DNA of 57,378 nucleotides from Elusimicrobiota bacterium (GTDB lineage Bacteria > Elusimicrobiota > Elusimicrobia > UBA1565 > UBA9628), in contig DAHVNA010000006.1 in assembly GCA_027319565.1 (NCBI GenBank), positions 1 to 57,378 of the forward strand, written 5' to 3'. The translations under genes were made by a program, and so were the position numbers. The notes below the pieces were generated by a model, which did not search any database, was not told the DNA's origin, and saw only the letters and a program-made list of their open reading frames with translations. Of the stretch, positions 21,984 through 41,493 are shown in pieces. How positions within the stretch are numbered: position 1 is the first letter of the stretch; every line of letters begins with the position of its first letter.

Positions 21984-22856
21984 ATGGAATTAATCTCGAC
22001 GGAATTTCGCTGCAACAACCGCTGCGTCTTTTGCGCTCAAGACGGTTTACCCGCCGAAAAATTCTCGAAAGACGAGCAGGATTTAATCGCAAAAGCAAAG
22101 GCCGCTTGTCAAAAAGATTCCACAATCGCCTTTGTGGGCGGAGAGCCCACTCTTCATGAAGGACTAATTCCGGCGGTCTCGGCCGCGAAAGCATTCGGAG
22201 CCGCTTACGTTCTCATTCAAACGAATGGCCGCCGCTTGGCCTATTCTTCTTTCACTCAAAATCTGAAAAATGCGGGCGCCGATGCCCTGGATATTTCCCT
22301 TCAAGGATCGACCGGGGATATGCATGATTATCACACCCAGACGCCCGGGAGTTGGGCGCAGACTATTTTGGGAATTAAGCACGCGCGCAAAGCCGGTTTT
22401 CGCGTCGGCATTTCAACCGTAATTACGCGCTCTAATTTTAGGCACTTAAGCGAAATCGCGCATTTGGTTCACCGCTTGGGAGCGGAAGCTTTCCATTTGA
22501 GCTTGGCCATGCCCTACGGTCGCGCCGGCAAATCGTGGGCAAGAGTGATCCCTTTAGCGGAAATGGCGCGGCCCCATCTGACAGAAGCCCTCAACCTTTC
22601 TAAATCCTTGGGGCTTAAAACCGAATTGGGACACGCCTTCTCTGAAACCACCAGCCCGCTGTTTGCGGGAATAGGCCCCTATCAGCGCGGGGAGTTAGAA
22701 ACAGCCTCCCACTCAAAAAAATCGGGCGACGCCTCCTACGCAAGACCCAAGCCGGGGCTTCGCGAACGCCGCGGACCGCCCAAAACTGGGACAAAACTCA
22801 AAGAATTATTTCCGGAAATTTTTACCGGCGCCGATATCCCCGGGGGAAAACCCTAA
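21984..22856 (+). CDS. Radical SAM protein (HxsC-like core, no C-terminal auxiliary Cys motif)
   Basis: CNNRCVFC, GGEPT, QTNGRRL and HD..T.TPGSW motifs. Confidence 0.85.
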   Translation: MELISTEFRCNNRCVFCAQDGLPAEKFSKDEQDLIAKAKAACQKDSTIAFVGGEPTLHEGLIPAVSAAKAFGAAYVLIQTNGRRLAYSSFTQNLKNAGADALDISLQGSTGDMHDYHTQTPGSWAQTILGIKHARKAGFRVGISTVITRSNFRHLSEIAHLVHRLGAEAFHLSLAMPYGRAGKSWARVIPLAEMARPHLTEALNLSKSLGLKTELGHAFSETTSPLFAGIGPYQRGELETASHSKKSGDASYARPKPGLRERRGPPKTGTKLKELFPEIFTGADIPGGKP

Positions 22857-25000: not shown

Positions 25001-26265
25001 TGAGCGCTTTTTCATCCGAAGATTTACTTCTCCCAATATCCGGACACCACACTCTTAAAAATTTAAAAGAGGCGTATCTAAAACAGCTTTTGCGCGAAAC
25101 TCTCGCGCTCGCAATTAAAAACCGGTCTTGGAACCTCACGCCGCCGCTTTATCCCTTGCTTGCCGGCGCTTTAAAGGCCTCCCCAAAATCTCTTCTTGAA
25201 ATTCTATCTTCCCCGGAAATTTCTCCCCTTGTTTGGTGTTACCAAAGAAAAAACGATTTCCCCGGCCTTGAAAAGAAAATTGAAGAAGCCGCAGAGGCCT
25301 TGCCGGGATCTCTTTTGCTTTCCTTGGCCGCCCACAAACTTTTGCCTCAGGGTGGAGCGAAATTTTTAGTCTCTTCCGAGACTGAAATCATATCTCACTC
25401 TCTCGGATTTTCGATGAAACTGGAAGAAGGACGCCTGGGCTGGAATTTCGGAGCGGGGAGCGTTTCGGCCTTAAAAAGCTCGGGACCGGAAGGACAGGTC
25501 AATCTCAGTTCGGAAACCCTTTTGGGACGGCGCCCAGCGGCGGCGGGAATTTCTTCGCAATTGTGCTACGTCTCCCTTAAACCGCCGCGCCCGATTAAAC
25601 TGGCGCTCAAAGATATCAACCCTATCGCCGACATCGAGGCTCACCCGGATAAAGCCGGAAACGCCTTGGACCTGGGCGGGCATTCCGAAGAAGACTGGAG
25701 AGCGTCCCTGGCCCAGTGTCTTGATTGGATTTTAGAATTGTGGCCCGAGCTTTTTGAAGAAATGGAGATACTGCTTAAGCAGATTGTCCCTGTCGGGTAT
25801 TCCGACACCCGGCATCTTTCCGCGTCGTACCGCGAGGCAATTGGAACTGTTTACATGACGCTTCACCCCCATCTTTTGACAATGACCGAAGCCCTGATTC
25901 ACGAGTTTCAGCACAATAAGATGAATTTGGCCTCCTATTTTGACGGTTTCCTTGAAAACGCTTTTGTTCCTTTATATAAGTCTCCGGTGCGCCCGGACCC
26001 GCGCCCCCTGTGGGGAGTTCTTCTGGCGGTTCACGCATTTTTGCCGGTGGCCGAGTTTTACCGCAAAATGCGCGCGGCCAATCACCCCGTGTCTCAAACT
26101 CCTGATTTTGAACGCCGGCTCAAGGAAATCGACGAAAAAAACCGCGAGGGAATGGAGACTTTGAGAGAACACGCCCGCTGGACGCCGGCCGGTCGCGCCT
26201 TGATGGAGGCGCTTGAAATCGTGGCCAGGCAGCATCAAGGAAATCTCATAAGACCGGGGTCTTGA
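25000..26265 (+). CDS. HExxH-motif peptide-modification enzyme (alphaKG-HExxH beta-hydroxylase-like)
   Basis: EALIHEFQHNK followed by SPVRPDPRPLWGVLLAVHAF, the family signature. Confidence 0.85.
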   Translation: MSAFSSEDLLLPISGHHTLKNLKEAYLKQLLRETLALAIKNRSWNLTPPLYPLLAGALKASPKSLLEILSSPEISPLVWCYQRKNDFPGLEKKIEEAAEALPGSLLLSLAAHKLLPQGGAKFLVSSETEIISHSLGFSMKLEEGRLGWNFGAGSVSALKSSGPEGQVNLSSETLLGRRPAAAGISSQLCYVSLKPPRPIKLALKDINPIADIEAHPDKAGNALDLGGHSEEDWRASLAQCLDWILELWPELFEEMEILLKQIVPVGYSDTRHLSASYREAIGTVYMTLHPHLLTMTEALIHEFQHNKMNLASYFDGFLENAFVPLYKSPVRPDPRPLWGVLLAVHAFLPVAEFYRKMRAANHPVSQTPDFERRLKEIDEKNREGMETLREHARWTPAGRALMEALEIVARQHQGNLIRPGS

Positions 26266-26307: not shown

Positions 26308-27267
26308 ATGGAAGAGAAAGTTATTGAGATTCGCGTCCATGTTCCCAAGATTCATTTAAGTCCTAGGGTCTGGAAATGGGGCTTGGCTGGTCTTTTGGTT
26401 TTGGCTTTGGCTGAAAATCCCGCGACCGAGTCGGTGACTCTTTCTACCTATTACCCCGCTCCCGCCGGGGCTTATAATAACATGGTCACGATTGGGAACA
26501 CCTGGTTGGCGAGGGATCCGCAGTCAGGCGGGACTCCCAGTTTTGTCGAGATGGGAAGTAACCTAGGAGTTCCCCCTAATGTAAAGCTTGATGTCACCGG
26601 AGGTAACGTGGGGATTGGAAATGCTAATAATGGGGGGTATCCCCCGCAGCCTATAGATCCAACTTTTGGTGGTGTTGCGGGCTCAGGGAACGGAAATTTA
26701 CTTGGAATCGCTGCTCAAGATAACTCTACGGCTTTGGTTATCGGGAATACTTCCGGAGCCCCACGTTTTGCTTTGAACCCTCAAAGTAACGGTGGTTGGC
26801 AGATGTCGGATTATGGGTCGGGAGGTTGGCAATCAGGGCTCAGTGAATGGAACGGAAGTGTTACCACCCAGAAAGCTTTGTCCGTTGGCCCTTTTACGAC
26901 AAACCCTTCGGATCAGAGTTATATCCATGTTAATGCCAATAACGCTTGCTCGCCGATGGGACCGGGACAAGATAATGCAATGTGTCCAGGCGGCTGGTAT
27001 GCCACTTGGACACCGGGAATTTATGTTGAGACCCCCAATGGTTATAGTGGTCCTGGTTGGGCTCACGATCGCTATGCCTTGTATGCGCTGGATCCTGCAG
27101 ATGGCCAATGGCTCAATTTTAATATAGACTGTAGTGCTGGATGGGGCACGCTTCAAATTCAGGCTGCTTTTCCTCATTCGTCGCCGGGGTTAACAGAGGT
27201 TTGTGTTGCCGGAGAAGGTCTTTTTGGCGGGAATGGCAATAATCGCTGGTGGTGTTGTCCAAAATAG
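26308..27267 (+). CDS. Membrane-anchored/exported Gly-Asn-rich beta protein (adhesin/fibre-like, hypothetical)
   Basis: N-terminal TM, ESVTLSTYYPAP, LDVTGGNVGIG fibre-type motif, and a Cys-containing C-terminus ending WWCCPK. Confidence 0.65.
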   Translation: MEEKVIEIRVHVPKIHLSPRVWKWGLAGLLVLALAENPATESVTLSTYYPAPAGAYNNMVTIGNTWLARDPQSGGTPSFVEMGSNLGVPPNVKLDVTGGNVGIGNANNGGYPPQPIDPTFGGVAGSGNGNLLGIAAQDNSTALVIGNTSGAPRFALNPQSNGGWQMSDYGSGGWQSGLSEWNGSVTTQKALSVGPFTTNPSDQSYIHVNANNACSPMGPGQDNAMCPGGWYATWTPGIYVETPNGYSGPGWAHDRYALYALDPADGQWLNFNIDCSAGWGTLQIQAAFPHSSPGLTEVCVAGEGLFGGNGNNRWWCCPK

Positions 27268-27428: not shown

Positions 27429-27914
27429 ATGAATCACAATGAATTGGCTGTTGATGTCGATATCCGACTCTATGGTCTTGACGCCATTTATAAGGCGTGT
27501 TACCACTTCCTAGAGAGTTTTTATATTCGTTTGGAAGGTGATTCTCAAGGGATTGTAAAAATTTTTATTCGTCCCAAGTCGGAAACTTCGCATCATAAGG
27601 ATATCATTGGAGAGATTCAAAATGAGCTTTTGCATCAGTCGCTGCGCTATAAAATTCTAAACGAAACCCAAAAATTAAGAGAATATGTAATCACAAAAGC
27701 GCTGAGCTCTGCAGAAGGTGCTCCAGCCGAACAATCTGGGAATGCTCAGGGGGTGGTCGGTTCCCCAGTTCTAGACGCGGAATTAGAGAGAGAGATAGAA
27801 AAGCTTTTAGCTGAAGTCGAAAAAGTGGATTCCGCAAATGATCCTCTTAAAATCGGCACACCTTGGGAGGAAAACCATCCCTCCGTCAATTCCTCCGTCC
27901 CCAAGAACTCATGA
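27429..27914 (+). CDS. hxsD: His-Xaa-Ser system protein HxsD
   Basis: D..LY..DAIYKACY.F and NELLHQSLR.KI..ET..LRE motifs; position upstream of hxsB. Confidence 0.85.
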   Translation: MNHNELAVDVDIRLYGLDAIYKACYHFLESFYIRLEGDSQGIVKIFIRPKSETSHHKDIIGEIQNELLHQSLRYKILNETQKLREYVITKALSSAEGAPAEQSGNAQGVVGSPVLDAELEREIEKLLAEVEKVDSANDPLKIGTPWEENHPSVNSSVPKNS

Positions 27915-28111
27915 AAATAAAATTCCCAACCAATCTTTATTCAAGAAAGGCCGTAGAAGCCGCAGCGGTGGATTTTGCGGAATGGGCACGCTTTGAAATT
28001 ATCGAGAAAGATGGTGTTATTGGAGTAGAGGCCATTACTGAACCAGGCATGGAAATCAGTGAAAATTTTAAAGAAGAATTTTCGAATTATGTTCTTGGAC
28101 AAATGTCATGA
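27911..28111 (+). CDS. Short HxsD-like protein
   Basis: From ATG 27911 (ATGA overlap): LYSRKAVEAAAVDF...EEFSNYVL, which mirrors the HxsD pattern. Confidence 0.7.
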   Translation: MKIKFPTNLYSRKAVEAAAVDFAEWARFEIIEKDGVIGVEAITEPGMEISENFKEEFSNYVLGQMS

Positions 28112-29589
28112 TCACGCTTGAAGATATTAGAAAGGTTGATGAGAAAAAGGTTGGGGCGTTTTACTATCGCGTACTTAATGGGCGATATTTGATCACCAAC
28201 GATCAGGGACGTTATTTAGATTTATCGGAAGAGGATTTCAAGAGTTTTACCCGCGGGGAGGTCCTCCCGGAAAGCGCTCTTGGAATGGTTTTAAAGCAAA
28301 ATGGTTTTTTGCGCGAATGGGTTGATGTTGAGAGTCTTTCCCGAGATTGGTCAAAAAAGAATGCCTTTTTGAATTCTGGCACGGGGCTCCACATCATCGT
28401 GGTAACACTAAGGTGTAATCAGAAATGCGTCTATTGCCAGGTTAGCTCTGTGGGAATGAATGAAACTTCCACCGATATGACCGAAGCAACGGCTGAAAAG
28501 GTCCTTCAGCGTATATTTGAGAGCCCTAACAATGATATCACCATTGAGTTCCAGGGGGGCGAGCCATTAGTCAACTGGCCGATTATTCGTTACATAGTTA
28601 CTCGAGCTACTGAAATCAATAAAACAGCCCAGAAAAACCTCATCATCGGCATGGTTTCTAATCTTAGCTTGATGGATGAAGAAAAACTCCAGTTTCTTCT
28701 AGAGCATGACGTCACTTTTTGCACATCTTTGGACGGCCCAGCTTCCGTTCATGAGGAAAATCGCAAATGGTTAGGGGGGACCAGTCATGGTGACGCGGTT
28801 AAATGGTGGCGCGTTATCATGGAGAAGACTATAAATAAGCGTTACCGTATTGATGCTTTGACTACAATCACCAAACGCTCACTATCCTCTCCGAAAGAAA
28901 TTATCGATGAATATATTTCTCTTGGGGCACGCGGCATTTATCTTCGTTACTTGAGTCCGCTCGGATTTGCCCTTAAGACTTGGGAGAAAATTGGATACAC
29001 CTCCAATGAATACCTCGATTTCTATAGAACTGCTATGGACTATATTATCGATATAAATTTAAAAGATAGAAATAAACATTTTTTTGAAAACATGTCAAAG
29101 CAGTTTTTAACCAAGATTCTTTTAAACGAAGATCCTAATAATATGGATGTGCGCAACCCTTGTGGTGCAGGTATTGGTCAACTCGCGTACAACTTTGATG
29201 GATCAATCTATACTTGTGACGAGGGGAGAATGTTAAGCCGGATGAAAGATGAGTCTTTCAAGGTTGGGGATGTTAAGACAGGAACCTTATCGGATAATAT
29301 GCGCCACCCAGCGGTCCGTTCTCTCATCGTAGCATCACATCTTGAAGGGCAGCCCCAGTGTTCTTCGTGTGCTTATAAACCTTATGATGGAGTTTGTCCT
29401 ATTTACAACTATGTGACTGAAGGGGATATTATTAGCCGCATGCACTCGAATCAAAGATGTCATGTTCATATGGGCATCCTAGATTATTTGTTTTTGCGCC
29501 TGAGAGATCCGCAGGTAAAAGCCGTTTTTGAAGGATGGGTTACCTCTCCTGAGCGCCCGATTCGCGCCGATATTTTTCAAAGAAATTAA
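28108..29589 (+). CDS. hxsB: His-Xaa-Ser system radical SAM/SPASM maturase HxsB
   Basis: LHIIVVTLRCNQKCVYCQ, IEFQGGEPL, TSLDGP, PCGAGIGQLAYN.DG..YTCDEGRML and CxxCxYKPY motifs. Confidence 0.92.
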   Translation: MITLEDIRKVDEKKVGAFYYRVLNGRYLITNDQGRYLDLSEEDFKSFTRGEVLPESALGMVLKQNGFLREWVDVESLSRDWSKKNAFLNSGTGLHIIVVTLRCNQKCVYCQVSSVGMNETSTDMTEATAEKVLQRIFESPNNDITIEFQGGEPLVNWPIIRYIVTRATEINKTAQKNLIIGMVSNLSLMDEEKLQFLLEHDVTFCTSLDGPASVHEENRKWLGGTSHGDAVKWWRVIMEKTINKRYRIDALTTITKRSLSSPKEIIDEYISLGARGIYLRYLSPLGFALKTWEKIGYTSNEYLDFYRTAMDYIIDINLKDRNKHFFENMSKQFLTKILLNEDPNNMDVRNPCGAGIGQLAYNFDGSIYTCDEGRMLSRMKDESFKVGDVKTGTLSDNMRHPAVRSLIVASHLEGQPQCSSCAYKPYDGVCPIYNYVTEGDIISRMHSNQRCHVHMGILDYLFLRLRDPQVKAVFEGWVTSPERPIRADIFQRN

Positions 29590-29607
29590 TCTAATGGGTC
29601 AAGGAAA

Positions 29608-29943
29608 ATGAGCGACAACAAAAAAGAAACGAAAAAATCCATGTTGCCTCAAATTAAGAAAGACTTAAAGAGATTTTTGACAAGTGAAGAGGCTAAAGTC
29701 GTGGATTCAGACGTCCTCAAAGCCGCCATTGCTTTAGGTATTCTTGGATCGGCGTTTTTGCCCACAGACAAGGCACTGGCGCAAACGCTTCACAATAACT
29801 TTCTTTATAATACGGGAGGATCCTCGGGGCACTCAAGCCATAATTCGCACGGGTCGCACGGGTCGCACGGATCTCACGGGTCTCACGGGTCGCACGGGTC
29901 TCACGGGTCGCACGGGTCTCATGGGTCTCATGGAGCTTGGTAG
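29608..29943 (+). CDS. hxsA: His-Xaa-Ser repeat precursor peptide (HxsA-like)
   Basis: 111 aa with a basic N-terminus, a hydrophobic stretch and C-terminal HSS-HNS-(HGS)9-HGAW; AAGGA RBS; directly after hxsB. Confidence 0.9.
   Translation: MSDNKKETKKSMLPQIKKDLKRFLTSEEAKVVDSDVLKAAIALGILGSAFLPTDKALAQTLHNNFLYNTGGSSGHSSHNSHGSHGSHGSHGSHGSHGSHGSHGSHGSHGAW
29830..29928 (+). repeat. 9-bp coding tandem repeat, 11 His-Xaa-Ser triplets
   Basis: CAY-GGR-TCK units; among the nine HGS units variation is confined to third codon positions. Confidence 0.95.
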
Positions 29944-29947
29944 TTTT

Positions 29948-30979
29948 ATGAAAAAGACTGCTTTTTTTGTATTGATTAGTTTGGTTGCTACAGGAGTTTT
30001 TGCGCAACCTGGGAGTTCCCGGATTTCTCAAGGGGCGTCCCAGGGTTCAGGCATTTACCCTCCCTATTTCCAAAATCTTCCCAGAACGAAAGCGGGGATT
30101 AAAAGGTTCCTCTTGTCTTATTGCCAAAACCACGTTTCTCTGGAACAAATTATGGCTTCGAGCCATGCTTCTGGACGCGCAAATCCTCATGGACGCTGTG
30201 CTGGTCGGAGAGGTTATCAGTTATGCTTGGCGTTAGCTACACAAAACCCAAACCGATGCGGAGAGTTGGCTAAGGGTTGCCAATCCAGTCTCATTGAAGA
30301 TTGCCACAGAGACTACAACGCTGCAGAATTCTTCGTTAAGATGGCTGGTTCCACTGAAGAATTTATGCCCTTCTGCGTTAAGGCCATGAAGCAAGATCAT
30401 ATGAGTATGCCTTCAGAGAATATGCCTAAGGCATGTTTAGTTCTTCGTCAAGCGGTCCTGAACCATTGGACACCGGAGAGGTTTTGTCATAACATGAAAC
30501 CGTTAGGTCTTCCACAATGCCAAAAAAATGCGGCATTTCTTCTTGGGCCGCAGGCTTGTTCGTCTGGTAATACAGATGGTATATGCGAAGCGGATACGGC
30601 AATTTTTAAAGTTCTTTCTTCAAGAAACAATGTGGAAGCGTGCGGCTCTTCTCCTATTTGTCGTGCGGCGTTTACTCATTCCTCAAAAATTTGCGAGGAA
30701 ATGAGTGGACAGTTTGCTTTGGAGTATTGTCAAGAAACAGCGGGGTCCCAATTTCGGAAGATGATGGCGGAGGAAAAACGTTTCCGCAAATACAATCGAT
30801 TGCCCCCTTACAAGAACGGAGATTTGCTTATAAATTACTTGCCCCCAGAGAAAAAAGAAAAATACTACAACAAATCTCTGATGAAGAAACACGATCAGGA
30901 GATGATGCAAAAATATTTAAAGCACGTTCCGCCGCCCAGTTCGCAGGGAGAGGGGAATGTTCAAGACTCTGGCGAGTAA
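29948..30979 (+). CDS. Secreted cysteine-rich protein (16 Cys), hypothetical
   Basis: From ATG 29948: signal peptide MKKTAFFVLISLVATGVFA-Q. The longer track ORF from 29744 only reads through the HGS repeat. Confidence 0.75.
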   Translation: MKKTAFFVLISLVATGVFAQPGSSRISQGASQGSGIYPPYFQNLPRTKAGIKRFLLSYCQNHVSLEQIMASSHASGRANPHGRCAGRRGYQLCLALATQNPNRCGELAKGCQSSLIEDCHRDYNAAEFFVKMAGSTEEFMPFCVKAMKQDHMSMPSENMPKACLVLRQAVLNHWTPERFCHNMKPLGLPQCQKNAAFLLGPQACSSGNTDGICEADTAIFKVLSSRNNVEACGSSPICRAAFTHSSKICEEMSGQFALEYCQETAGSQFRKMMAEEKRFRKYNRLPPYKNGDLLINYLPPEKKEKYYNKSLMKKHDQEMMQKYLKHVPPPSSQGEGNVQDSGE

Positions 30980-32438
30980 AAGTTCTCAGAAGAAGAAAAC
31001 CGTCTTGCCTTGGGCGGAGTTCCTAACCGCTTGTTGCCGCGATTGTTTTAATTTCATCAGAGATGAGCCGTTGTCCAATGTTCCCAGCTGTTTCAAAAGG
31101 GGAACTCTAAAAACAATTCAGAAAAAATGGAAAGAAGCTTTTTCTTTAATGGAGGCAGGGGCGGTCCCACCAGAAATGGGCCTTGAAATTGTTTGGCCAT
31201 CTTTCTCGGGTAGTAAAAACTCTAAGTGGAATTTTCAAAGTCCCGCTCTGGAACTTATACGGAGAGAGTTGGAGCAATTTTCGCAAATATTTGACGGTCT
31301 TTCCTTCTCTTCACTTTCTATTGGCGATGGAATTACAAGTGGCGGAGCGATATCCGATCTCGATCCGCTTCCCTTGCGTGAATTTATAACGTATCTTCGA
31401 ACAACTTTTAAATTCTCAGAAGGTGCGGCAATTTCTATTAAGGGATCCGTGGAAACCCTGACGCGTTCTAAGCTGGATGTTCTCGTTAGCGCTGGTGTTT
31501 CAAGAGTAGTTCTTGATGTTCAGAACCAATCTATAGTTCCGATGACTTTTTCCGAAAGAAAATCAGAAATATTAGCGGCGTTGTCTAATGCTCCAGATGT
31601 AACATTGGACATTGATATTGTGGTAGGGCGCGAGGGACAGACTTTAGAGTCTATTACCGAAGCTGTTGAGCGGGCATTGAGCTTTTCCCCCCATGCAATC
31701 TATCTTTATTTGGAGGGTGGTTCTTATTTGGGAACAGAAGGGAAGCGGCTAACTCCAGAATCAATGGCGCGAGAAAAAGGAAGAAAAATATTGGAATTCT
31801 TAGATCAATTTATCTGTCGTTTCGGGTATAAACACCAGGTCGATGATCAAGACTATTTATTCCTTCATCCATGGGAGAGAAATCAGATCCGCGCGAAGAA
31901 AAAGAGAAGAGCTTCGGTTTTGGGGGTAGGCAATGGTTCGCTATCTCACATATTCGGTTCCGCATGGTATTGCCGTCCGCCCATCCAGGTTGAAGATATC
32001 CAGGAATATGATATTTCGGAATATTTCTATTTGGACTCCACAATTATAGACGAAATGCGAGGATATATAATTGGAGCGCTGCTACAAACTTCAAAAATTT
32101 CAAGAAATTCATTTAAAGCGCTATTTGGAAAAGACGTGCTTGATGTCAAAGAATTGAAGGTGCCGTTGATGCGACTTTTTGACTTGGGATTAATCCGCAT
32201 GGATTCTCAACTCATACGTTGGAATGGGGAGGATACCATTGAGCGTGCGCTATGGCTTAAGCAGTTTCATAACCCTAATATAGTTCGCTCCATTCTGACG
32301 GAGAAAAAAGAATCACTGCTTGCATTTGTCAATCGTTTTGAACAAGATGAGGCTTTCTGGCGTGAGATGGCAACAGAAAGACATAGCGAACAGGATTCGA
32401 TTGCATACTGGAATCCAAAGGCCTTATGGAAACAATGA
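30957..32438 (+). CDS. Degenerate HemN-like radical-SAM-fold protein lacking CxxxCxxC
   Basis: Colinear with the 32426 and 38870 paralogues (PWAEF, SVLGVG.G.LSH.FGSAWY, EMRGY), but reads EIVWPSFSGSKNSKW where they read HWPFCPSQCTFC. Confidence 0.8.
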   Translation: MFKTLASKSSQKKKTVLPWAEFLTACCRDCFNFIRDEPLSNVPSCFKRGTLKTIQKKWKEAFSLMEAGAVPPEMGLEIVWPSFSGSKNSKWNFQSPALELIRRELEQFSQIFDGLSFSSLSIGDGITSGGAISDLDPLPLREFITYLRTTFKFSEGAAISIKGSVETLTRSKLDVLVSAGVSRVVLDVQNQSIVPMTFSERKSEILAALSNAPDVTLDIDIVVGREGQTLESITEAVERALSFSPHAIYLYLEGGSYLGTEGKRLTPESMAREKGRKILEFLDQFICRFGYKHQVDDQDYLFLHPWERNQIRAKKKRRASVLGVGNGSLSHIFGSAWYCRPPIQVEDIQEYDISEYFYLDSTIIDEMRGYIIGALLQTSKISRNSFKALFGKDVLDVKELKVPLMRLFDLGLIRMDSQLIRWNGEDTIERALWLKQFHNPNIVRSILTEKKESLLAFVNRFEQDEAFWREMATERHSEQDSIAYWNPKALWKQ

Positions 32439-33952
32439 AATTTACTCGTGTTCCTTGGCCGGAATTTATATCTACTCAAGTCTGGGAACATCGATACTTC
32501 CCAATGGATGGCCCATCTCGTTATAGTCCCACGTATTTTTCCAGTATCCCTTTCTCCCGTGTTCGTGGAATGTGGGAAAAAACAGTATCCATGATTAAGG
32601 CCGGGAAAGCCCCCCCGCAGGTTGGTCTTTTTATTCATTGGCCCTTTTGCCCCAGTCAGTGCACATTTTGTTTCTGCAGTATGGCGGTTCCAAAAAATCA
32701 AGACGCAATGGCCATGATGCTTCAATCTATAATGAGCGAAATAGATGCGTTGGCCGATATTTTTGAGGATATTCCTCTTTCGAGTTTGTGGATGGCTGGA
32801 GGCACTCCAACATTCATGACGGATGGGATGTTGGACACACTTCTAAAACATATTTATCATCGTTTCCGCTTTGTTAATGGAGCGCAGATTTATTCAGAAA
32901 GTTCCCCTGCAACTCTCACATCTTCAAAATTAAAAATTCTGCTTCGACACGGGCTTAATAGGATTACCGTTGGGATCCAGACTATGGATTCTGGCCTAAT
33001 TCAGGTCCTTGATCGCCGCGGCCAAACAAAAGAAAAAATTAGGGAAGTCTTCGAAATGCTGAAGGCTTTAAAAGGTGTCATTAAAGACGTTGACGTGATG
33101 GTAGGATTGGAAAATCAAACCGCTCAAATTGTTGCCGATGATATGCGTGAAATTTTAATGTTTCGCCCCGACAATATCCATTTGTTTACTTTTGCCCTTA
33201 GTCCCCAGGTCCTTTTTGTGCAGCGTGGAGGAACGATGGATGAAAGGCAACGCCATCAACAAAAACTCCTTTTTGAATTTGCCAGCCGTATTTTAGAGCG
33301 TTCCGGATATCGGGAAAGTCATTATAATGAGAACTCTCTTCAGCCTTTCCCTTGGGATGAGAAACAAGACGGGGCTTTGCGGTTGGCTAGAGCTTCTGTG
33401 ATCGGGGTCGGACCGGGAGCCTATTCTCATGCTTTTGGATCGGCATGGTATTTCCACCCCCCATTCTCTGAAATGGGCTCTTCTTCTGGAATCCCTGAGG
33501 TTCGGGCCATGGAATCAGGAATTGAAGAAGAGATGCGAGGGTTTCTTATAAAACGCTTGATGCAAGATTCATATGTTTCGCTCAAAACTTTTAAATCTCT
33601 GTTTGGCATCGATCTCTCAAGTGTGAGCAATATCTCTCGGATTTTAGATGAATTAAAAAATGAGGGGCTAATTAAGATCGAGAATGAAAAAATATCGTGG
33701 ACGATTCTTAATTCTATTGATCGAATGATTCAAGTAAAGCGCCTCTATAGCCCGCAGATTGTCTCCGCGATATTGAAGGGGAAGGAAGAATTATTCCGTC
33801 GGTTTGTGTCTGCTTGGGCTGCGGGAGATGTTCGCTGGCGAGAAGCAATTAGATCAGAGGATAATCGAGAGCCTTGCCGTGTGTATTATGATACACGCAT
33901 CTGGGGTAAAGGAGCCTTTGCACATTCAAGGGGAGCGCTTTTTAGGAAATAA
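32426..33952 (+). CDS. HemN-like (class C-type) radical SAM protein
   Basis: LFIHWPFCPSQCTFC, GGTPT, ESSP and NRITVGIQT motifs. Confidence 0.88.
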   Translation: METMKFTRVPWPEFISTQVWEHRYFPMDGPSRYSPTYFSSIPFSRVRGMWEKTVSMIKAGKAPPQVGLFIHWPFCPSQCTFCFCSMAVPKNQDAMAMMLQSIMSEIDALADIFEDIPLSSLWMAGGTPTFMTDGMLDTLLKHIYHRFRFVNGAQIYSESSPATLTSSKLKILLRHGLNRITVGIQTMDSGLIQVLDRRGQTKEKIREVFEMLKALKGVIKDVDVMVGLENQTAQIVADDMREILMFRPDNIHLFTFALSPQVLFVQRGGTMDERQRHQQKLLFEFASRILERSGYRESHYNENSLQPFPWDEKQDGALRLARASVIGVGPGAYSHAFGSAWYFHPPFSEMGSSSGIPEVRAMESGIEEEMRGFLIKRLMQDSYVSLKTFKSLFGIDLSSVSNISRILDELKNEGLIKIENEKISWTILNSIDRMIQVKRLYSPQIVSAILKGKEELFRRFVSAWAAGDVRWREAIRSEDNREPCRVYYDTRIWGKGAFAHSRGALFRK

Positions 33953-33953
33953 T

Positions 33954-34904
33954 ATGCCGCTTCTAGGGCGCAATCCGGACAATCACCAAGAAACTCGGTG
34001 TCTAGAGATCACGCTTTCTTATACTTGTGATGTTGATTGTGTCTTTTGTAGTCATGCCCAAATAATGAGGGCATTTTCCGCGTGGCCGCTCAAATTGCGA
34101 GAAATGCAGGCTGTGCTTTTCCGAAAAAAGCAAGAGGGGTTTAGTCATGTAACATTTACTGGCGGGGAGCCGACCCTTTATCCACGTTTTAATATTATTT
34201 TGGCTATTGCGAAGAGACTGGGTTATCAAACGCGCGTGATCAGTAATGGAGCAGGTTTTTTTCAATACTCCCAGATGGCATCGATAAGCCCGTTTATAGA
34301 TGAGTTATGCTTTTCTTTTCATGGAGGAACTGCCGAAATTCACGACAAAGTCACCCGCTCGCCCGGAAGTTTTGAAAGAATAATAAAGGCGTTACACATG
34401 ATAGAAGATAATAAACGGATTAAGGTTTCGGTCAATATGGTCGCGACGACCTTAAACCTTGATTCTTTGGTTACTGCCGCAGGGTTAGTGCGCGGACATA
34501 AGAGAATTCATGAAATTTGGTTATCGAACCTTGTTCCCATTGGACAGGGATTGCTTAAATACGATGAATTATCCGTTAAAAGTGCGGTGATTATGGAACG
34601 GGTCCCCTCTATTGTGGGCGCGGCCGTGCCTGTTCCAATGCGTTTTTATGGGTTCCCGCTTTGTATTTTGGGCAAATTACGAAGTTCTGCTGTTATTCGT
34701 CAGCATCCTGCTGTAAGCGTGTTTCGTGTGCGTGGGAAAGATGGGAAACCTTCCATAAGAAGTCAAGATAGCCATTTTTCCGATCCACCAAGGATTTTGA
34801 CCCAAAAGTGCGAAGGATGTTTAGACCAAACAGTTTGTGGAGGGCCTTGGGAGCGATACGTGAAGAAATATGGAGATGGAGAGTTGATTCCACGACTACA
34901 ATGA
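33954..34904 (+). CDS. HxsC-like radical SAM protein
   Basis: CDVDCVFC, TGGEPT, GFPLC and C-terminal CEGC.....CGG. ATG 33954 follows AGGA. Confidence 0.85.
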   Translation: MPLLGRNPDNHQETRCLEITLSYTCDVDCVFCSHAQIMRAFSAWPLKLREMQAVLFRKKQEGFSHVTFTGGEPTLYPRFNIILAIAKRLGYQTRVISNGAGFFQYSQMASISPFIDELCFSFHGGTAEIHDKVTRSPGSFERIIKALHMIEDNKRIKVSVNMVATTLNLDSLVTAAGLVRGHKRIHEIWLSNLVPIGQGLLKYDELSVKSAVIMERVPSIVGAAVPVPMRFYGFPLCILGKLRSSAVIRQHPAVSVFRVRGKDGKPSIRSQDSHFSDPPRILTQKCEGCLDQTVCGGPWERYVKKYGDGELIPRLQ

Positions 34905-35917
34905 GTCAAGATATTTTCGTTTCACCTCAATGGACCCGCAATGCCGTTGTCGAATCTGGATCTCGTCTAGAGTTTCACATCATTTACCGCTGTGTAGATC
35001 AATGTATTTTTTGCAGTGAAGAAACTAGTATGAAGCGGCTCAAAGGAATTATCGTTCCTAGAGAAGATGTTCTATCGATGCTTGAGAAGAAAAGGAAAGA
35101 AGGGTTTGAGCATGTAACCCTTACTGGCGGTGAACCAACGTTTTATCCCAAGTTTTGGGAAATTGCAGCCTTCGCGAAAAATCTGGGGTATAGAGTTTTT
35201 GTGATATCAAATGGTTGGGGGTTGTCTCAACCGGAGTTCGCTGCAAAACTCTTACCCTATATTGATGAACTTTGCCTTTCAATCCATGGCCCCAACAAGG
35301 AAGTTCACGATAAATTAACGCGCACGGAGGGGAGTTTTGAAAAGCTTATGGGGGCGTTTAAGAATGTTGAAGCGCATCCTGCCCGCCATTGGGTCCAGGT
35401 CAATCATGTTGTCACACAACATAATGTAAAGTATCTTCCTCGAACTCTGGAGCTATTTAGTCGTAATAAAAAGTTGTGCCAGTTCCTGGTGTCAAACGTG
35501 ACACCGCATGGAGGCGCAAAGCCCAATTATAGAGATCTTGCCGTGCCACACAAGGCGATTACCTCCCAGATTCCGACCTTGGCCAAAATAGCTCGTATCA
35601 GGCGTGTTTCTCTTAGGTTCTATGGAATTCCGGTATGTCTGCTCGGTCCCTATTGGCGCTATTCCAATGACCTCTTTTTTAGCCCGCGTACGACCATCGC
35701 CAAGACTACCCAAGATAATGGATCGGTTGATTGGCTGTTTGAGCGCGCTCCTTATTCCTATCGGGAAAAATTTTTTCCAAAAGTTTGCGATTCTTGCGTA
35801 TTGAAAGGGCGCTGTGGTGGTATTTATTTCCCCTACACGAAAATTTTTGGCAATGAAAACCTTAAGCCATTTACGGTCAAATCATTGCGTGAGCTGTCGG
35901 ATATGTCCAATTCATGA
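34901..35917 (+). CDS. HxsC-like radical SAM protein
   Basis: CVDQCIFCSE, TGGEPT, GIPVC and CDSC.....CGG; ATGA overlap at 34901. Confidence 0.85.
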   Translation: MSQDIFVSPQWTRNAVVESGSRLEFHIIYRCVDQCIFCSEETSMKRLKGIIVPREDVLSMLEKKRKEGFEHVTLTGGEPTFYPKFWEIAAFAKNLGYRVFVISNGWGLSQPEFAAKLLPYIDELCLSIHGPNKEVHDKLTRTEGSFEKLMGAFKNVEAHPARHWVQVNHVVTQHNVKYLPRTLELFSRNKKLCQFLVSNVTPHGGAKPNYRDLAVPHKAITSQIPTLAKIARIRRVSLRFYGIPVCLLGPYWRYSNDLFFSPRTTIAKTTQDNGSVDWLFERAPYSYREKFFPKVCDSCVLKGRCGGIYFPYTKIFGNENLKPFTVKSLRELSDMSNS

Positions 35918-35928
35918 ATTAATATTCA

Positions 35929-36918
35929 ATGGTTGATTCTGTGGTTACGAGAGAAGAACGTCTGAAAAACGTCGAAATTAATCCCGGCCGCTTGTGCAAT
36001 AATAAATGTATTTTTTGCATGAGTGGAGAGGAGCGCGACGAGCACAATCCGTGGGCTTCTTTAGGTCGCGTAAAAAACGAACTAGAATATCATTACCAGC
36101 AGGGCGCGCGTTCTGTGGGATTCTTGGGGGGAGAACCTACCGCCTATCCGCATATTATTGAAAGCATTTCTTATGCAAGAGAGATCGGATATCAGCGAAT
36201 TGCGTTATGTACGAACGCAATGAGACTCAGCCAAGATGACTTTCTTGATGAAGTCTTGACTGCGGGGTTAACCAGGGTCACGGTGTCAGTGCATAGCCAT
36301 ATCGCAGAAATTGAAGAAAAGCTGGTAGGGATTCCTCAAGTTTTGGCGATGAAACTTCAAGCAATCGATAACCTGATTGCAGCAAAAAAATCGGGACGAT
36401 TTGCTGACAATATCTCTCTAAACCCTGTCCTAAACCGTCTTAATGCTTTTCAAATGGAAAATTTTATTCAATTCTTCATTGAACGTGGCATTGATGATGT
36501 TCGTTTTAATTTTATTTGGCCGCAATCGCGCGTCCTTAAAGACACATCTGTCGTCCCTCGGTTTCGGGACGTGATGCCTTATATTTTGAATACAATTCTT
36601 ATTAATGAACGCAACTGGAAAATTAATATTAGTTTTGGAGCTGTTCCTTTTTGCGTAGTGCCTGGTTTTTTTCGCGATCACAAAGAGCTTCTTTTTAAAT
36701 ACTTTTCAGAAGAAGGAAACGATAACCCAACTGAAGTTGGGTTTATTAACCCCGATTCCGAGGGGGATGTGCATCGTTTTGCGCTCAAGGCACGTACGAG
36801 ATACGATCATCGAATGAAGATTCCCGCCTGCCGCAGTTGCCGCTTCGATTCGCACTGCTTGGGGGTCTGGCGAAGCTATGTAGAATTATATGGGGCAGAG
36901 GAATTTTGGGCGGTTTAA
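35929..36918 (+). CDS. HxsC-like radical SAM protein
   Basis: CNNKCIFC, LGGEPT, VPFC and CRSC.....CLG motifs. Confidence 0.87.
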   Translation: MVDSVVTREERLKNVEINPGRLCNNKCIFCMSGEERDEHNPWASLGRVKNELEYHYQQGARSVGFLGGEPTAYPHIIESISYAREIGYQRIALCTNAMRLSQDDFLDEVLTAGLTRVTVSVHSHIAEIEEKLVGIPQVLAMKLQAIDNLIAAKKSGRFADNISLNPVLNRLNAFQMENFIQFFIERGIDDVRFNFIWPQSRVLKDTSVVPRFRDVMPYILNTILINERNWKINISFGAVPFCVVPGFFRDHKELLFKYFSEEGNDNPTEVGFINPDSEGDVHRFALKARTRYDHRMKIPACRSCRFDSHCLGVWRSYVELYGAEEFWAV

Positions 36919-36958
36919 TATAAGGGCACGGATGAAATAATATGGCTATTTCTATTGA

Positions 36959-37900
36959 ATGTCTTGTAGAGCCATGAATTTATACGACACGCGTCTTTGT
37001 TTGCTAGTTTCGCGACAATGCAATATTCGTTGCTCTTTTTGTCCGGTCGAGTTTACTGGCGGTAATATGTTGCTGGATGTCGCTCGTCGAGCTGTTGACC
37101 AATATATTGAACATCTTCCTTCTTCTACTTTCCCAAGAATTAAATTTTTCGGAGGAGAGCCATTGTTAAACTGGCCGGTCATATATGCCCTTGTTGAACA
37201 TTATCATCGCATCAATAAAAACATTTCATTTCAGATATCGACGAATGGAATGTTTCTTGATAGCGAAAAGATTACCTACTTGAAAAGGCGTCCTGAGGTG
37301 GAAGTGACTTTAAGTTTCCGTTCTAAAAACGGAGCAGAACTGCCAAACTCGTGGTTTACAATGGTGTTAACACAGAATCAATCAGCTGAAGAGGTTATTT
37401 CCCGGATGAGGATTCTTTTAAGAGATGGTTATCGCCAATTTAATTTCTTGCCAGCTTATTTTTCCTTATGGACAAGCGAGGAACTTAAAGGATTAGAACG
37501 CGTACTACACTCTCTTCGGAAACTTTTTTTTGGACTCTGGGACCAAGGGGTTCCATGTCGAATCAGGAATTCAGAAATTTTGAGCCCGATTCCACTTTAT
37601 AATGCGGCTCTGACTGTAGATACAGATGGCAGCGTTTACTCCTCAAGTCTGATCGAAACGCAGGGGATTGAGCCGTATCGGAATTTTTTAAAAATTGGTT
37701 CAGTTGAATCCTGGCCATCATTGAGCGAACCGCGTCGTGACGGCAGAATTTTACGTGAGGTTCTAAGGCGTTGGGCGGGACCTAAACGCTGGGCTTCAAC
37801 TGAAGCCGTCGATGAGCTTTTAAATTATTTTGTACAAGACATTTTCCAATACAAACTATCCAATACGGTTGAATCAAGGGTGCGGGAATGCCTTTCTTAG
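36959..37900 (+). CDS. Radical SAM protein (anSME/SPASM-like core without intact SPASM Cys)
   Basis: CNIRCSFC, IKFFGGEPLL and STNG motifs; VDTDGSVYSS where SPASM proteins usually have DG.VYPC. Confidence 0.82.
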   Translation: MSCRAMNLYDTRLCLLVSRQCNIRCSFCPVEFTGGNMLLDVARRAVDQYIEHLPSSTFPRIKFFGGEPLLNWPVIYALVEHYHRINKNISFQISTNGMFLDSEKITYLKRRPEVEVTLSFRSKNGAELPNSWFTMVLTQNQSAEEVISRMRILLRDGYRQFNFLPAYFSLWTSEELKGLERVLHSLRKLFFGLWDQGVPCRIRNSEILSPIPLYNAALTVDTDGSVYSSSLIETQGIEPYRNFLKIGSVESWPSLSEPRRDGRILREVLRRWAGPKRWASTEAVDELLNYFVQDIFQYKLSNTVESRVRECLS

Positions 37901-38883
37901 AACACTCGTTCCCTGGAGGCAAGGGCCCTGGAACTCATGTTAAGCGATTAGAATTCCATATGTCCTATACCTGCAATCAAGATTGCATTTTTTGTTCCGA
38001 GAGCGTCCGCATGCGACAGTATCAAAATCATCCATTATCTTATAAAGAGATGGTTCAGACTATAACGCGAAAACGTCTGGAGGGTTGTGAGCATATAACG
38101 TTTGTGGGTGGCGAACCTACCATTCATCCGGATTTCTTAAAGCTTTTGTCGGCCGCTAAGCGCCTCGAATATAAAACACTTCTAATTACCAACGGCGTTC
38201 GGCTCTCTGAGTTTGATTTTTCCGCAAAAGCCTTGCCGCTTTTAGATGAGATCGTATTTTCAATCCACGGGCCCAACCCAAAAGTTCATGACGGCTTGGG
38301 AAAATCAAAAGGAAGTTTTAACAGGTTAATGACGGCTCTTGATCTTATTGAGCGCTCAAATTCCAAGCCATTTGTCTTAACCAATACCGTTGTAACCAAG
38401 GAAAACTTTGAATTCTTGGAAGAGACAATCGATCTCTTGTCATCCAGATCAGCCGTGAGGCATCTTCTGATCTCAAATCTTGCTCCCGATGGGAACGCTC
38501 TTACTTTTTATCTTGATCAGGTTGTTTCTATTAAAGAATTAAGCTCCTTGGCGCCGCGACTGGTTTCCATCGCAGAAAACCGGAAGAAAATTATTCGATT
38601 TTTTGGAATGCCCCTTTGCGCCTTGGGGGAGGTTTGGAAATCTTCAAATGATCTTTATTGGGACAGCCGGACCAATGTTGAGCGCACGACTTCTCATGGG
38701 AAGGTTGAGCTCGAGGATACTTGGAACTATACCCCTCAACGAATGCGGTTTTTCCCTGAGATTTGCGCTTCTTGTCCTGCGCGCGGGAAAGAGTGTTGGG
38801 GAATTTTTAGAGTCTATCATAAGCATTTTGGGGAAACGGAGCTAAGTCCTCTTAAAGCACCTTTGGAATATGCAGTTAAATAA
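37888..38883 (+). CDS. HxsC-like radical SAM protein
   Basis: CNQDCIFCSE, GGEPT, GMPLC and CASC......CWG; close paralogue of 34901 (RLEFH, SNDL). Confidence 0.87.
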   Translation: MPFLEHSFPGGKGPGTHVKRLEFHMSYTCNQDCIFCSESVRMRQYQNHPLSYKEMVQTITRKRLEGCEHITFVGGEPTIHPDFLKLLSAAKRLEYKTLLITNGVRLSEFDFSAKALPLLDEIVFSIHGPNPKVHDGLGKSKGSFNRLMTALDLIERSNSKPFVLTNTVVTKENFEFLEETIDLLSSRSAVRHLLISNLAPDGNALTFYLDQVVSIKELSSLAPRLVSIAENRKKIIRFFGMPLCALGEVWKSSNDLYWDSRTNVERTTSHGKVELEDTWNYTPQRMRFFPEICASCPARGKECWGIFRVYHKHFGETELSPLKAPLEYAVK

Positions 38884-40354
38884 CGTGCCGCCCTTACGTT
38901 GGGCTGAGTTTATTTCGAGTGTTTATGGGAGCCGTTATTACCCGCCTTTAGATGGCTCATTTCGGACTCCTAAATATTTTAATCGTCTTGATTTTAAAGA
39001 TGTCAGAGAGAATTGGAACAAGAGTTTCAGCATGATGAAGAATGGGGATATCCCTTCGGAGATAGGGATGTATGTTCATTGGCCGTTTTGCCCGAGTCAA
39101 TGCACATTTTGTCGTTGCAATATGACAGTCCCTAAAAACAATCAATCCATGAAATCGACTTTAGAAGCACTTAAAAACGAAATGAGCATGTTCCAAGAGG
39201 TATTTAAGGACACGGAGTTCTCGAGCTTCTATATGGGAGGGGGCACTCCGACATTTATGACAAACGAGATGTTAGATGATTTCTTCTCCCATTTACATCG
39301 ATGTTTTAGGTTTGCAAAAGGAGCTCAGATATATATGGAAAGCTCTCCGGCGACCTTAACGGAATCAAAGATCCGGCTTCTTCTTAGGCATGGCCTTAAT
39401 CGCATAACAATTGGCGTTCAAACTTTCAATGATCATCTGCTTTCTAATTTGGATCGATTTGGGCAAACTCGAAGTTCTGTGCTCGAGCTATTTAATTTAC
39501 TTTCTCAATTCCCGAATTTAGTCTTGGACCTAGATTTGATGGTTGGTTTAGAGGAGCAAAATCCCGCTATTTTTTTTAGTGATTTACTACAAGTCATAAA
39601 GCTAAGGCCAAAGTGCCTTCATCTCTATCCATTTGACGATGCCCTTCCTACTATTTTTAGACAAACAGGGAAAAAAATTGATTCAAGGCAGCGCCGCACA
39701 ATCGACCAGATGACGCAAGCCGCCGACCGACTAATACACAAATCTGGGTATATGCGCTGGAGTGACGGGTGGGAGGATGTCAATTTGTATCCCTGGGAAA
39801 CTCGTCAGGAAACGGCTCTGCGCCGTTTTCGTGTTTCCATGCTGGGTATTGGGTATGGCGCTTTGTCACATTCCTTTGCTTCTTCTTGGTATTGTCATCC
39901 AGGGATTTCACCTGGAGGAGTCAAGAATGCTGATGTTCCTGATTTCTTGTCCATAGATTTCAACACTGAAGAAGAAATGAGGGGCTATTTAATTGAATCT
40001 CTCGCAAGAAGTGGAAAATCTTCCCGCCTGGTTTTTAAAAAGATATTTGGGCGCGATATTATGGATATGGATTTTCTTGAGGGCCCTATTTCACGACTTG
40101 TCGATGAAGGACTTCTGACAGTTGATTCTAAATTTCTTGCTTGGTTAGGCAGAGACATCATGCAGATGGTAATTCAATTAAAGCGCTTTTATAGCCCTAA
40201 AATAATTAAAACTATACTTCAATCCCATCTGGAGGGATTAAGGCGTTTTTCGAAGCAGATGATCGATGGCGATGATTTAAGAAAAACCGTAATGATGGAG
40301 CAAGAAGGTCGCAGAGTTCTTGCTTACTATGATTCTCGCGCCTGGAAAAATTGA
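38870..40354 (+). CDS. HemN-like (class C-type) radical SAM protein
   Basis: MYVHWPFCPSQCTFC, GGGTPT, ESSP and NRITIGVQT; close paralogue of 32426. Confidence 0.88.
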   Translation: MQLNNVPPLRWAEFISSVYGSRYYPPLDGSFRTPKYFNRLDFKDVRENWNKSFSMMKNGDIPSEIGMYVHWPFCPSQCTFCRCNMTVPKNNQSMKSTLEALKNEMSMFQEVFKDTEFSSFYMGGGTPTFMTNEMLDDFFSHLHRCFRFAKGAQIYMESSPATLTESKIRLLLRHGLNRITIGVQTFNDHLLSNLDRFGQTRSSVLELFNLLSQFPNLVLDLDLMVGLEEQNPAIFFSDLLQVIKLRPKCLHLYPFDDALPTIFRQTGKKIDSRQRRTIDQMTQAADRLIHKSGYMRWSDGWEDVNLYPWETRQETALRRFRVSMLGIGYGALSHSFASSWYCHPGISPGGVKNADVPDFLSIDFNTEEEMRGYLIESLARSGKSSRLVFKKIFGRDIMDMDFLEGPISRLVDEGLLTVDSKFLAWLGRDIMQMVIQLKRFYSPKIIKTILQSHLEGLRRFSKQMIDGDDLRKTVMMEQEGRRVLAYYDSRAWKN

Positions 40355-41493
40355 TTCATCTTACACTGATTTTTTTTATAATCATCGGGCTCCTTGCCTC
40401 GATTAGCGATATAAAAACTCGCAGAATCGGCAATTGGTTGATTTTTTCTTCCGGGTTTTTTATCGTTTGTGAATATGTTTTGGTGTTTTGGAAGGTCATT
40501 CCTTGGTCACAGCCGTATTCCAGGATGGAATTCTACCGGATGGCCTTATTGCATTTGGCGCTTTGTAGTTTGTCGGCCCTGGTGCTGTGGTATTACCGCA
40601 TTTGGCCGGCTGGCGACGCGAAATTTTTCGTCATAATGGCGTTGTTTTTGATCACTATTCGTCCCGATATCCCCGGTTTTCCTAATTGGCTGTTTTTTAA
40701 ACTTTTGACAAATATATTCATTCCGGCCTCCATCTTTATCATAGCGATCCATGTCGCGGAGTGGATGTCCTCTATCAAAGGAGTCATTCCTCGCCTCACG
40801 TTACATTCGGTTTATGCTGGAGGATCGCATATTCTCCGTCAAAAAATAGAAGAATTCCAATGGTCTAATATTCAATATGGGGTTTTCCTGGCGTGGAATG
40901 TTATTGCATTCGTAGTTCTTTCTCAATATATTTTTGTGTTGGCTCCGACTAATTTTCAAGGTCTTTTGCGGCTGGTATTTTATTTCCTTTTGTTTATGGC
41001 CTGGAGCAAAGCTCCTCAGTTTTTAAAGCAATCATTTTTATCTATTGGGATGCTGTTATTGATCGTGGTACTAGGTAAAATATTCCATCAAAATATCCTG
41101 AGTTCTATTGGAATTGCGGCGGCATCCTCCCTCGTATTTTTCATTCTGTTCTCATTAATACGTTTTGCCTTGAATTTATTGGATTTAGGCCAAATCGTTT
41201 CTTGCCCTATTGGGCAGTTGAAACAAGGGGATGTGTTGAGTCTCGATTCATGGAAATATGTGGTTCAGGCTTGCAAAGAGGTGGACCCTGGATTTCTGTC
41301 AACTCGTTACGCGGATGGCCTTTCGAGTGAAGAGGTTCGGTTTATTCAGAAATGTTGTCCATTGGAATTAGACAAAGTCTTGCAAGTTTTTCAGACTCGC
41401 CCCTTTGCTTTTTGGATTTTTTTGGGTACAGTTTTGACTCTCTGCACTCGCGGCACGGTATTGCGCCACATCTTATCCATTATGGGACGCTAA
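40351..41493 (+). CDS. A24 prepilin-peptidase-like intramembrane aspartyl protease
   Basis: First Asp in SDIKTRRIGN, GxGD-type site WPAGDAK, multiple TM helices and C-terminal PFAFWIFLG. Confidence 0.75.
   Translation: MIHLTLIFFIIIGLLASISDIKTRRIGNWLIFSSGFFIVCEYVLVFWKVIPWSQPYSRMEFYRMALLHLALCSLSALVLWYYRIWPAGDAKFFVIMALFLITIRPDIPGFPNWLFFKLLTNIFIPASIFIIAIHVAEWMSSIKGVIPRLTLHSVYAGGSHILRQKIEEFQWSNIQYGVFLAWNVIAFVVLSQYIFVLAPTNFQGLLRLVFYFLLFMAWSKAPQFLKQSFLSIGMLLLIVVLGKIFHQNILSSIGIAAASSLVFFILFSLIRFALNLLDLGQIVSCPIGQLKQGDVLSLDSWKYVVQACKEVDPGFLSTRYADGLSSEEVRFIQKCCPLELDKVLQVFQTRPFAFWIFLGTVLTLCTRGTVLRHILSIMGR

Follow-up and report, generated by a model that had tools for sequence, protein, structure and literature searches.

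A FlaK-like aspartyl peptidase and a candidate leader-bearing substrate in an expanded His-Xaa-Ser cluster of Elusimicrobiota

The locus

We analysed a 57,378-nucleotide stretch of DNA (the window) from an Elusimicrobiota bacterium (GenBank assembly GCA_027319565.1, contig DAHVNA010000006.1) that carries an expanded His-Xaa-Ser (HXS) system of the HxsA3/A4 type, comprising a repeat-bearing precursor, radical S-adenosylmethionine (SAM) genes and, as its last gene, a membrane aspartyl peptidase. We consider it likely that this peptidase is dedicated to the system and cuts the precursor leader after residue 29, exposing a signal that would export the core. The open reading frame (ORF) list, together with NCBIfam and Pfam scans of the window, gave an 18-gene + strand cluster at 21984-41493, with Radical_SAM Pfam matches in ten ORFs:

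21984..25000, + strand, pair of HxsC-like radical SAM genes, of which the second has two radical SAM domains; under the HxsC and HxsC4 cut-offs
25000..26265, + strand, aKG-HExxH-type peptide beta-hydroxylase (TIGR04267, 99.4, cut-off 40)
26308..27267, + strand, unannotated protein; hydrophobic segment at its N-terminus, L(S/T)TYYP motif
27429..27914, + strand, HxsD (TIGR03976, 61.6, cut-off 50)
27911..28111, + strand, HxsD-like protein (NF038315, 47.9, cut-off 41; scanned as 27863-28111)
28108..29589, + strand, HxsB radical SAM/SPASM maturase (TIGR03978, 492 bits, cut-off 370)
29608..29943, + strand, HxsA4 precursor, 111 aa (NF038313, 87.9 bits, cut-off 55)
29948..30979, + strand, Cys-rich protein with a signal-like N-terminus, directly 3' of the precursor; no family match
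30957..40354, + strand, eight radical-SAM-type genes between precursor and peptidase (three HemN-like, one of these without CxxxCxxC, four HxsC-like and one HxsB-like)
40351..41493, + strand, FlaK-like A24 (GxGD-type) membrane aspartyl peptidase, 380 aa, about eight hydrophobic segments

Nine genes separate precursor from peptidase, successive ORFs overlapping or lying no more than 40 bases apart, and the peptidase gene is the final + strand gene before a convergent tetratricopeptide repeat (TPR) gene at 41505. The first-pass annotation had reported no C39 or other usual protease or transporter of peptides that are synthesized on ribosomes and modified post-translationally (RiPPs) in the locus, and scanning the 18 operon ORFs against Pfam and NCBIfam likewise turned up neither a C39 or other protease nor a transporter family. 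Beyond the operon, on the other strand, lie an S8 protease (50309-52501, 9 kb away) and an ABC transporter without a C39 match (54411-56144, 13 kb away); the sole C39 match of the genome stands alone as a protein on a different contig. In 17 neighbour clusters scanned from the loci of peptidase relatives, no C39 or ABC exporter was conserved. Two families, M20 (22 loci) and U32 (16 loci), are repeatedly found near the relatives' peptidase genes, and the operon here has neither.

The cluster shares HxsB, HxsD, HxsC-like enzymes and a His-Xaa-Ser precursor with the HXS systems of Pseudomonadota described in the text of PMC13128918, where the canonical system comprises four genes (HxsD-HxsB-HxsC-HxsA) and no protease, and HxsA carries a signal at its N-terminus plus a peptidoglycan-binding domain. 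According to the main text of the same source (Li et al. 2026), >99.8% of the HXS systems surveyed have four genes. By contrast, the window cluster combines 18 genes, ten with Pfam radical SAM matches, with an HExxH hydroxylase and a peptidase, and its precursor has a leader before the hydrophobic (h-) region and no C-terminal domain. With no HxsC above cut-off (best TIGR03977 score 159.6 against 267.9; best HxsC4 score 175 against 500) and no peptidoglycan-binding domain, it lies outside the canonical four-gene HXS.

A FlaK-like peptidase that accompanies HxsA4-type precursors

The 380-aa protein was identified computationally as a FlaK-like A24 aspartyl peptidase. The first-pass annotation had recognized an A24 peptidase with both Asp motifs, an assignment upheld by 175 relatives and by the fold. 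D20 (40408-40410) and D89 (40615-40617, within WPAGD89AK) correspond to an invariant D20 and WPAGD89xK in a 36-sequence alignment; among the 175 relatives, D20 is Asp in 171 (4 gaps) and D89 in 173 (2 gaps), and neither is substituted. The motif at the second Asp is AGD rather than GxGD. Against the Pfam A24 model PF01478 the window peptidase scored 19.5 bits, under the cut-off of 26.5, and 24 of 32 distant relatives matched at E<=0.01, with P0122 (29.8) exceeding the cut-off; one distant relative weakly matched PF06819. An AlphaFold2 model (predicted local distance difference test, pLDDT, 85.6) returned FlaK (3s0x) as its top match among 48,161 chains (Z 11.2, root-mean-square deviation 3.6, aligned over 171 of 186 residues; the next match had Z 5.8). 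The fold tool warns that Z under ~13 is possibly unspecific for helical proteins, but the gap in Z and the alignment coverage agree with the Asp motifs.

Among the chains compared, archaeal FlaK is the closest structural relative found. Foldseek with the peptidase model gave nothing at E<=0.001, and Protein Data Bank (PDB) sequence searches with the protein, both peptidase profiles and the genome's PilD gave no related structure. CxxC is absent from the window peptidase, which thus lacks the N-terminal Zn-binding CxxC...CxxC domain of PilD-type bifunctional prepilin peptidases; the genome's PilD (contig C34) has two CxxC motifs. As in FlaK/PibD (A24; PF01478, PF06819; 3S0X), it is polytopic, with an Asp in the first helix, an Asp in an xGD motif and a C-terminal soluble beta part; it differs in its length of 380 aa, its extra central helices, WPAGDAK in place of GxGD, and its bacterial origin inside radical SAM clusters, where its candidate substrate has polar residues from +1 to +9 and no 21-residue hydrophobic tract. 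The named relatives are mostly from Elusimicrobiota. The peptidase profile recovered 431 representatives at E<=1e-30; of ten clusters looked up, one was from Candidatus Nealsonbacteria and one was labelled FlaK. No relatives were found in plasmids or viral contigs. The precursor families HxsA4 and HxsA3 (NF038313, NF038309) are named in NCBIfam, yet no NCBIfam model matches the peptidase; the window precursor passes NF038313, and most scanned precursors of metagenome loci have their best score on these two models. Several genomes have two peptidase forms, and in L072, L077, L116 and L119 a longer form (~450-550 aa) lies beside a gene for an HExxH hydroxylase, apart from the main cluster.

The gene neighbourhoods of relatives were drawn from the best 80 of 124 confirmed stretches in genomes and the best 80 of 400 in metagenomes, the latter representing a more distant clade of the peptidase. 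Radical SAM genes neighbour the peptidase in 75 of the 79 genome loci (50 with a strong HxsB match) and 67 of the 80 metagenome loci; among the other 13 metagenome loci, nine start <600 bases from the gene, three have a precursor and one has apparent other radical SAM genes. Precursor and peptidase genes are adjacent in L009 and L136, with a gap of 25 bases in L136. We also profiled 401 genomes of the phylum (apparently Elusimicrobiota) for HxsA4, the peptidase and TadE. HxsA4 matched 96 genomes, of which 83 were kept at E < 1e-8 and 13 weaker ones set aside. The co-occurrence of precursor and A24 gene, proposed in the first-pass annotation as a check, was found: 80 genomes had both, 3 had a precursor without a peptidase, 7 a peptidase without a precursor (87 peptidase genomes in total) and 311 neither. 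Inspection of the seven revealed a leader-bearing precursor in two, four on early-ending or short contigs, and one (G390) with the peptidase alone; one precursor-only genome has its precursor on a 6.6-kb contig, the others being G228 and G256.

Pilins were a rival substrate to weigh. The genome's Tad locus (contig C45, L217:3332-10866) encodes two Flp-like pilins, TadE, CpaB, a secretin, an ATPase and two platform genes, and has no TadV or other peptidase gene of its own, which makes its pilins a real contender. The peptidase might accordingly act on Flp/Tad or type IV pilins, or on another cluster protein, and merely travel in the cassette; type IV pilin-like ORFs lie within 10 kb in 9 of the 80 metagenome loci (a count with no chance control), some of them just downstream of the peptidase (L195, L178/L181, L202), and G390 has the peptidase without Hxs genes. 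We regard this as very unlikely. TadE occurs in 317 of the 401 genomes against 87 for the peptidase, and in two families with TadE in 114 of 118 and 60 of 89 genomes the peptidase is present in 1 and 0. A canonical PilD is encoded elsewhere in the genome, on contig C34, and given the prevalence of TadE it is presumably PilD that processes the Flp-like pilins. Six Tad genes tested matched none of the 159 loci, and no genome locus (0/79) has a pilin-like ORF; the tracking of the peptidase with pilin genes that the first-pass annotation had allowed for was not seen. As for other cluster proteins, the L(S/T)TYYP family of 26308-27267 occurs in 31 of 79 genome loci, often adjoining hxsD, and in 0 of 80 metagenome loci, and has no Gly-ended leader. 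A second copy of this family lies on contig C15.

The precursor leader and its predicted cut site

The precursor sequence quoted in the first-pass annotation matches the ORF at 29608-29943 exactly. From its N-terminus it consists of a basic segment, the leader motif, a polar nine-residue linker, a short hydrophobic stretch, an AxA site and the His-Xaa-Ser core:

29674..29694, + strand, leader motif FLTSEEA, residues 23-29, with predicted cut A29|K30 (from 52 relatives and co-fold contacts)
29722..29766, + strand, uncharged h-region, residues 39-53 (15 aa), from +10 of the predicted cut
29773..29784, + strand, Ala-Leu-Ala|Gln, a signal-peptidase-I-like site by sequence
29830..29928, + strand, core of 11 tandem His-Xaa-Ser repeats, the sole such array in the assembly

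The C-terminus lies only four residues past the repeats (TIGR03979 score 21.1, under 121.65). A second cut at AxA|Q is suggested by the sequence and would leave Gln59 as the mature N-terminus; a loose small-x-small pattern, for which there is no chance control, falls at +21 to +38 in 51 of 52 relatives. In canonical HxsA/HxsA2 (L205-L214) the signal comes first and a long spacer precedes the core, an order that looks reversed in HxsA4, with its leader before the h-region and a short spacer.

A homologue search with precursor residues 1-75 gave no matches, and relatives were instead collected from loci with a loose form of the motif as filter; the lone repeat-bearing frame outside the filter is antisense. 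This yielded 52 precursors distinct within their first 70 residues, many of them close kin. The FLxxExG/A motif that the first-pass annotation had expected in homologous precursors is present as FLxSEE[G/A], with Phe in 50 and Tyr in 2 at -7, Leu in 49 at -6, Glu in 52 at -3, Glu in 51 and Asp in 1 at -2, Gly in 48 and Ala in 4 at -1, and Lys in 44 at +1. The same annotation's caveats about the window copy, Ala at -1 and Ser rather than Glu at +5, hold, but Ala at -1 is the minority state, since 48 of the 52 relatives have Gly. Position -1 is likewise confined to Gly (25) or Ala (3) in the 28 precursors not found through the HxsA4 model.

The motif belongs to the precursors beyond chance, as 30 of 34 matches in a core-blind six-frame search of 2.05 Mb round the 159 peptidase-anchored loci were precursor leaders. 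It is kept while the part after it spans 49-436 aa of His-Ser, Cys-rich or Asp/Tyr-rich repeats. Five frames in this genome combine the motif with a hydrophobic stretch, and the precursor alone resembles a real gene start. As a contrast set we took 10 of 22 plasmid Hxs operons, nine with an identifiable precursor: the leader motif was found in 0 of 9 canonical HxsA precursors and either peptidase profile in 0 of 10 loci, and several of these HxsA start with a K-x-F-L-type motif though they have no peptidase. Long Asp/Tyr/Cys-rich or Gly-rich cores follow the common leader at L136:665-1903, L139:93-641 and L143 near 3575, and the radical SAM enzymes of L139 are unlike HxsB.

For a co-fold, the peptidase was given an alignment of 36 rows and precursor residues 11-64 one of 45 rows. 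The pair scored 0.73 and the best of three controls, which were unrelated proteins rather than pilins, 0.00. Of 157 solved complexes 116 reach the mark, as do 2 of 215 mismatched pairs, a calibration that applies only roughly because our own alignments were used. Runs shared at least 87% of contacts, with partner pLDDT of at least 67. In the model, enzyme residues 19-20, 83-90, 119-134 (in part) and 349-353 meet precursor residues 22-41, an interface that takes in D20 and D89; F23 contacts the invariant W80 and A87 and the near-invariant A90, and D89 contacts V31, two residues after the predicted cut. The co-fold of peptide and protease that the first-pass annotation had suggested places a catalytic Asp, in the model, near the predicted cut. 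Sequence searches turned up no solved A24-substrate complex from which the co-fold might have copied; a structure of apo FlaK exists.

The position of the cut was weighed against an alternative in which the peptidase cuts after K-x-[G/A] before the hydrophobic stretch (A40|I41) and FLxSEEG is only a docking motif. This site fits class III geometry better: [KR]-x-[GA] falls at +9 to +11 in 47 of the 52 precursors, directly before the uncharged stretch, and the text of PMC4307647 describes archaellin leaders with basic residues at -2/-3 and Gly at -1. However, any h-region is likely to contain Ala and Gly, no more than ~11-13 uncharged residues would be left, and in the co-fold precursor residues 39, 40 and 43 contact the enzyme's 119-127 helix while D89 contacts V31. 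The co-fold contacts favour A29|K30, and we judge a cut at A40|I41 unlikely.

Alternatively, FLxSEEG could serve recognition by HxsB/HxsD, with housekeeping signal peptidase I alone cutting, at AxA|Q, and the A24 homologue binding or escorting the precursor without cleaving it. AxA-like sites are widespread, several canonical HxsA have a K-x-F-L-type start without a peptidase, and E. coli HxsA processing needs HxsB, C and D according to the text of PMC13128918. We nevertheless find this decidedly unlikely, as both catalytic Asp are unsubstituted in the 175 relatives, -1 is confined to Gly/Ala, and the motif persists across different cores and radical SAM sets.

The first-pass annotation had offered two readings, a prepilin-peptidase homologue acting as leader peptidase and a membrane-anchored, pilin-like product. 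The first is supported by the motif, the co-occurrence, the Hxs and pilin controls and the co-fold; the second is not. Flp prepilins have the leader consensus FLxDExG, which is cleaved by TadV/CpaA. The precursor leader equals the genome's Flp-like pilin in spacing (aromatic at -7, Leu at -6, Gly at -1), and most genomes of the phylum have a Tad machine, as would suit a cut product that becomes a pilin-like subunit of a His-rich filament or stays anchored by its h-region. Because Pfam Flp_Fap matched nothing in this genome or five plasmids, the Flp comparison rests on the pair of Flp-like ORFs in the Tad locus, of which one has Pfam matches under threshold. Flp prepilins differ in being hydrophobic directly after the cut, with Glu at +5, and the window peptidase does not track with Tad genes. 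In the text of PMC4471445, a class III signal peptide has a hydrophilic, Gly-ended leader, then ~21 hydrophobic residues, usually with Glu5. In the 52 precursors, by contrast, residues +1 to +9 have 4.0 charges on average, an uncharged stretch begins at +10 in 49 (median 13 residues against 21), and Glu+5 occurs in 13; the leader ends in Gly in 48 relatives and in Ala in the window copy. With nine polar residues after the cut, so short an uncharged stretch, a signal-peptidase-I-like site, Tad assembly genes in 0 of 159 loci and no NCBIfam or Pfam pilin family match for the precursor, a pilin-like or anchored product is highly improbable; within that reading, a plain membrane anchor with no filament may still hold.

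Several observations weigh against a dedicated leader peptidase, beside the fold-tool warning and the pilin-like ORFs given above. G256 (95% complete) and G228 (91%) have precursor and HxsB and no peptidase match in the assembly, and G390 carries an intact-looking peptidase gene (L114:3696-4940) alone among housekeeping genes, in a family otherwise without it (1/118). The co-occurrence rests on three families of one class (36/47, 8/10 and 41/47), so the genomes are not independent, and cassette linkage alone does not identify a substrate. The window copy has Ala at -1. By sequence, the residues after the predicted cut are unlike any class III signal peptide, so that the enzyme would have to accept an unusual substrate; PibD is more flexible round the cut than FlaK in the account of PMC4307647. 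The co-fold models binding, not cutting. Finally, the text of PMC13128918 describes E. coli HxsA as processed by a four-gene system without a protease gene, so that cleavage in Hxs systems is possible without an enzyme of this kind.

Proposed processing and its meaning

From these results we infer a route in which HxsB, HxsD, the HxsC-like enzymes and the HExxH hydroxylase would modify the His-Xaa-Ser core in the cytoplasm and the h-region would carry the precursor to the membrane. There, at the cytoplasmic face, the peptidase would recognize the FLxSEE[G/A] leader and cut after Gly/Ala (A29|K30 here), removing 29 residues. The remainder, a short polar n-region, a 13-15-residue h-region and AxA|Q, would resemble an ordinary export signal, and on that ground the modified core would be exported and probably released by signal peptidase I at Gln59. 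Tat export of the post-leader segment was considered and rejected: TatC is present in the genome, but the precursor has no twin arginine. By analogy with the E. coli system, a periplasmic anti-phage role may be a further step; in the text of Li et al. 2026 (PMC13128918), HxsA of E. coli undergoes N-terminal processing, a modification of +8 Da and export in dependence on HxsB, C and D, and stops phage DNA from entering. A broader idea, which we hold at somewhat less than even confidence, is that an archaeal-type prepilin peptidase was recruited as leader peptidase and forms, with the FLxSEEG leader, a portable module for many cores; the leader would mask the export signal until modification is done, and the cut would license export of a modified, possibly anti-phage surface peptide.

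Among the other genes, 30957-32438 is a HemN-like paralogue with CxxxCxxC replaced and no Pfam Radical_SAM match, directly 5' of an intact paralogue and, from its sequence, perhaps a non-catalytic partner. A promoter and terminator scan at the operon end gave chance-level results only. The convergent block at 41505-47032 encodes the TPR protein, an RnfD/NqrB-like membrane protein, an FG-GAP/ASPIC-UnbV protein and a multiheme cytochrome c, for which no link to the HXS genes is shown. Genes resembling nitrogenase components occur repeatedly in relatives' clusters (L002:1926-3323, L038:18165-19478) and may correspond to the 'nitrogenase paralog plus radical SAM' neighbourhoods reported for Elusimicrobia in bioRxiv 10.1101/765248.

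A term search of the main text of that preprint found no mention of Hxs, RiPP or peptidase, and the text covered of the preprint and of PMC9062424 has none of a prepilin peptidase. The terms peptidase, prepilin, protease, HxsA4 and Elusimicrob are all absent from the main text of Li et al. (PMC13128918). A literature search for prepilin peptidases in peptide maturation or Hxs clusters, with subscription journals mostly outside its coverage, returned no relevant report. What appears new, on sequence and modelling, is a His-Xaa-Ser system with its own candidate FlaK-like leader peptidase and a predicted cut site.

For one branch of HXS systems this would supply a defined enzyme and a cut-site prediction, the processing step of the E. 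coli form being unexplained in the text of PMC13128918. The leader offers a search tag for precursors with unrelated cores. If the proposal is true, A24 aspartyl peptidases would be added to the leader-removing enzymes of post-translationally modified peptides, and the substrate range of prepilin peptidases would extend to a non-pilin with a polar post-cut segment.

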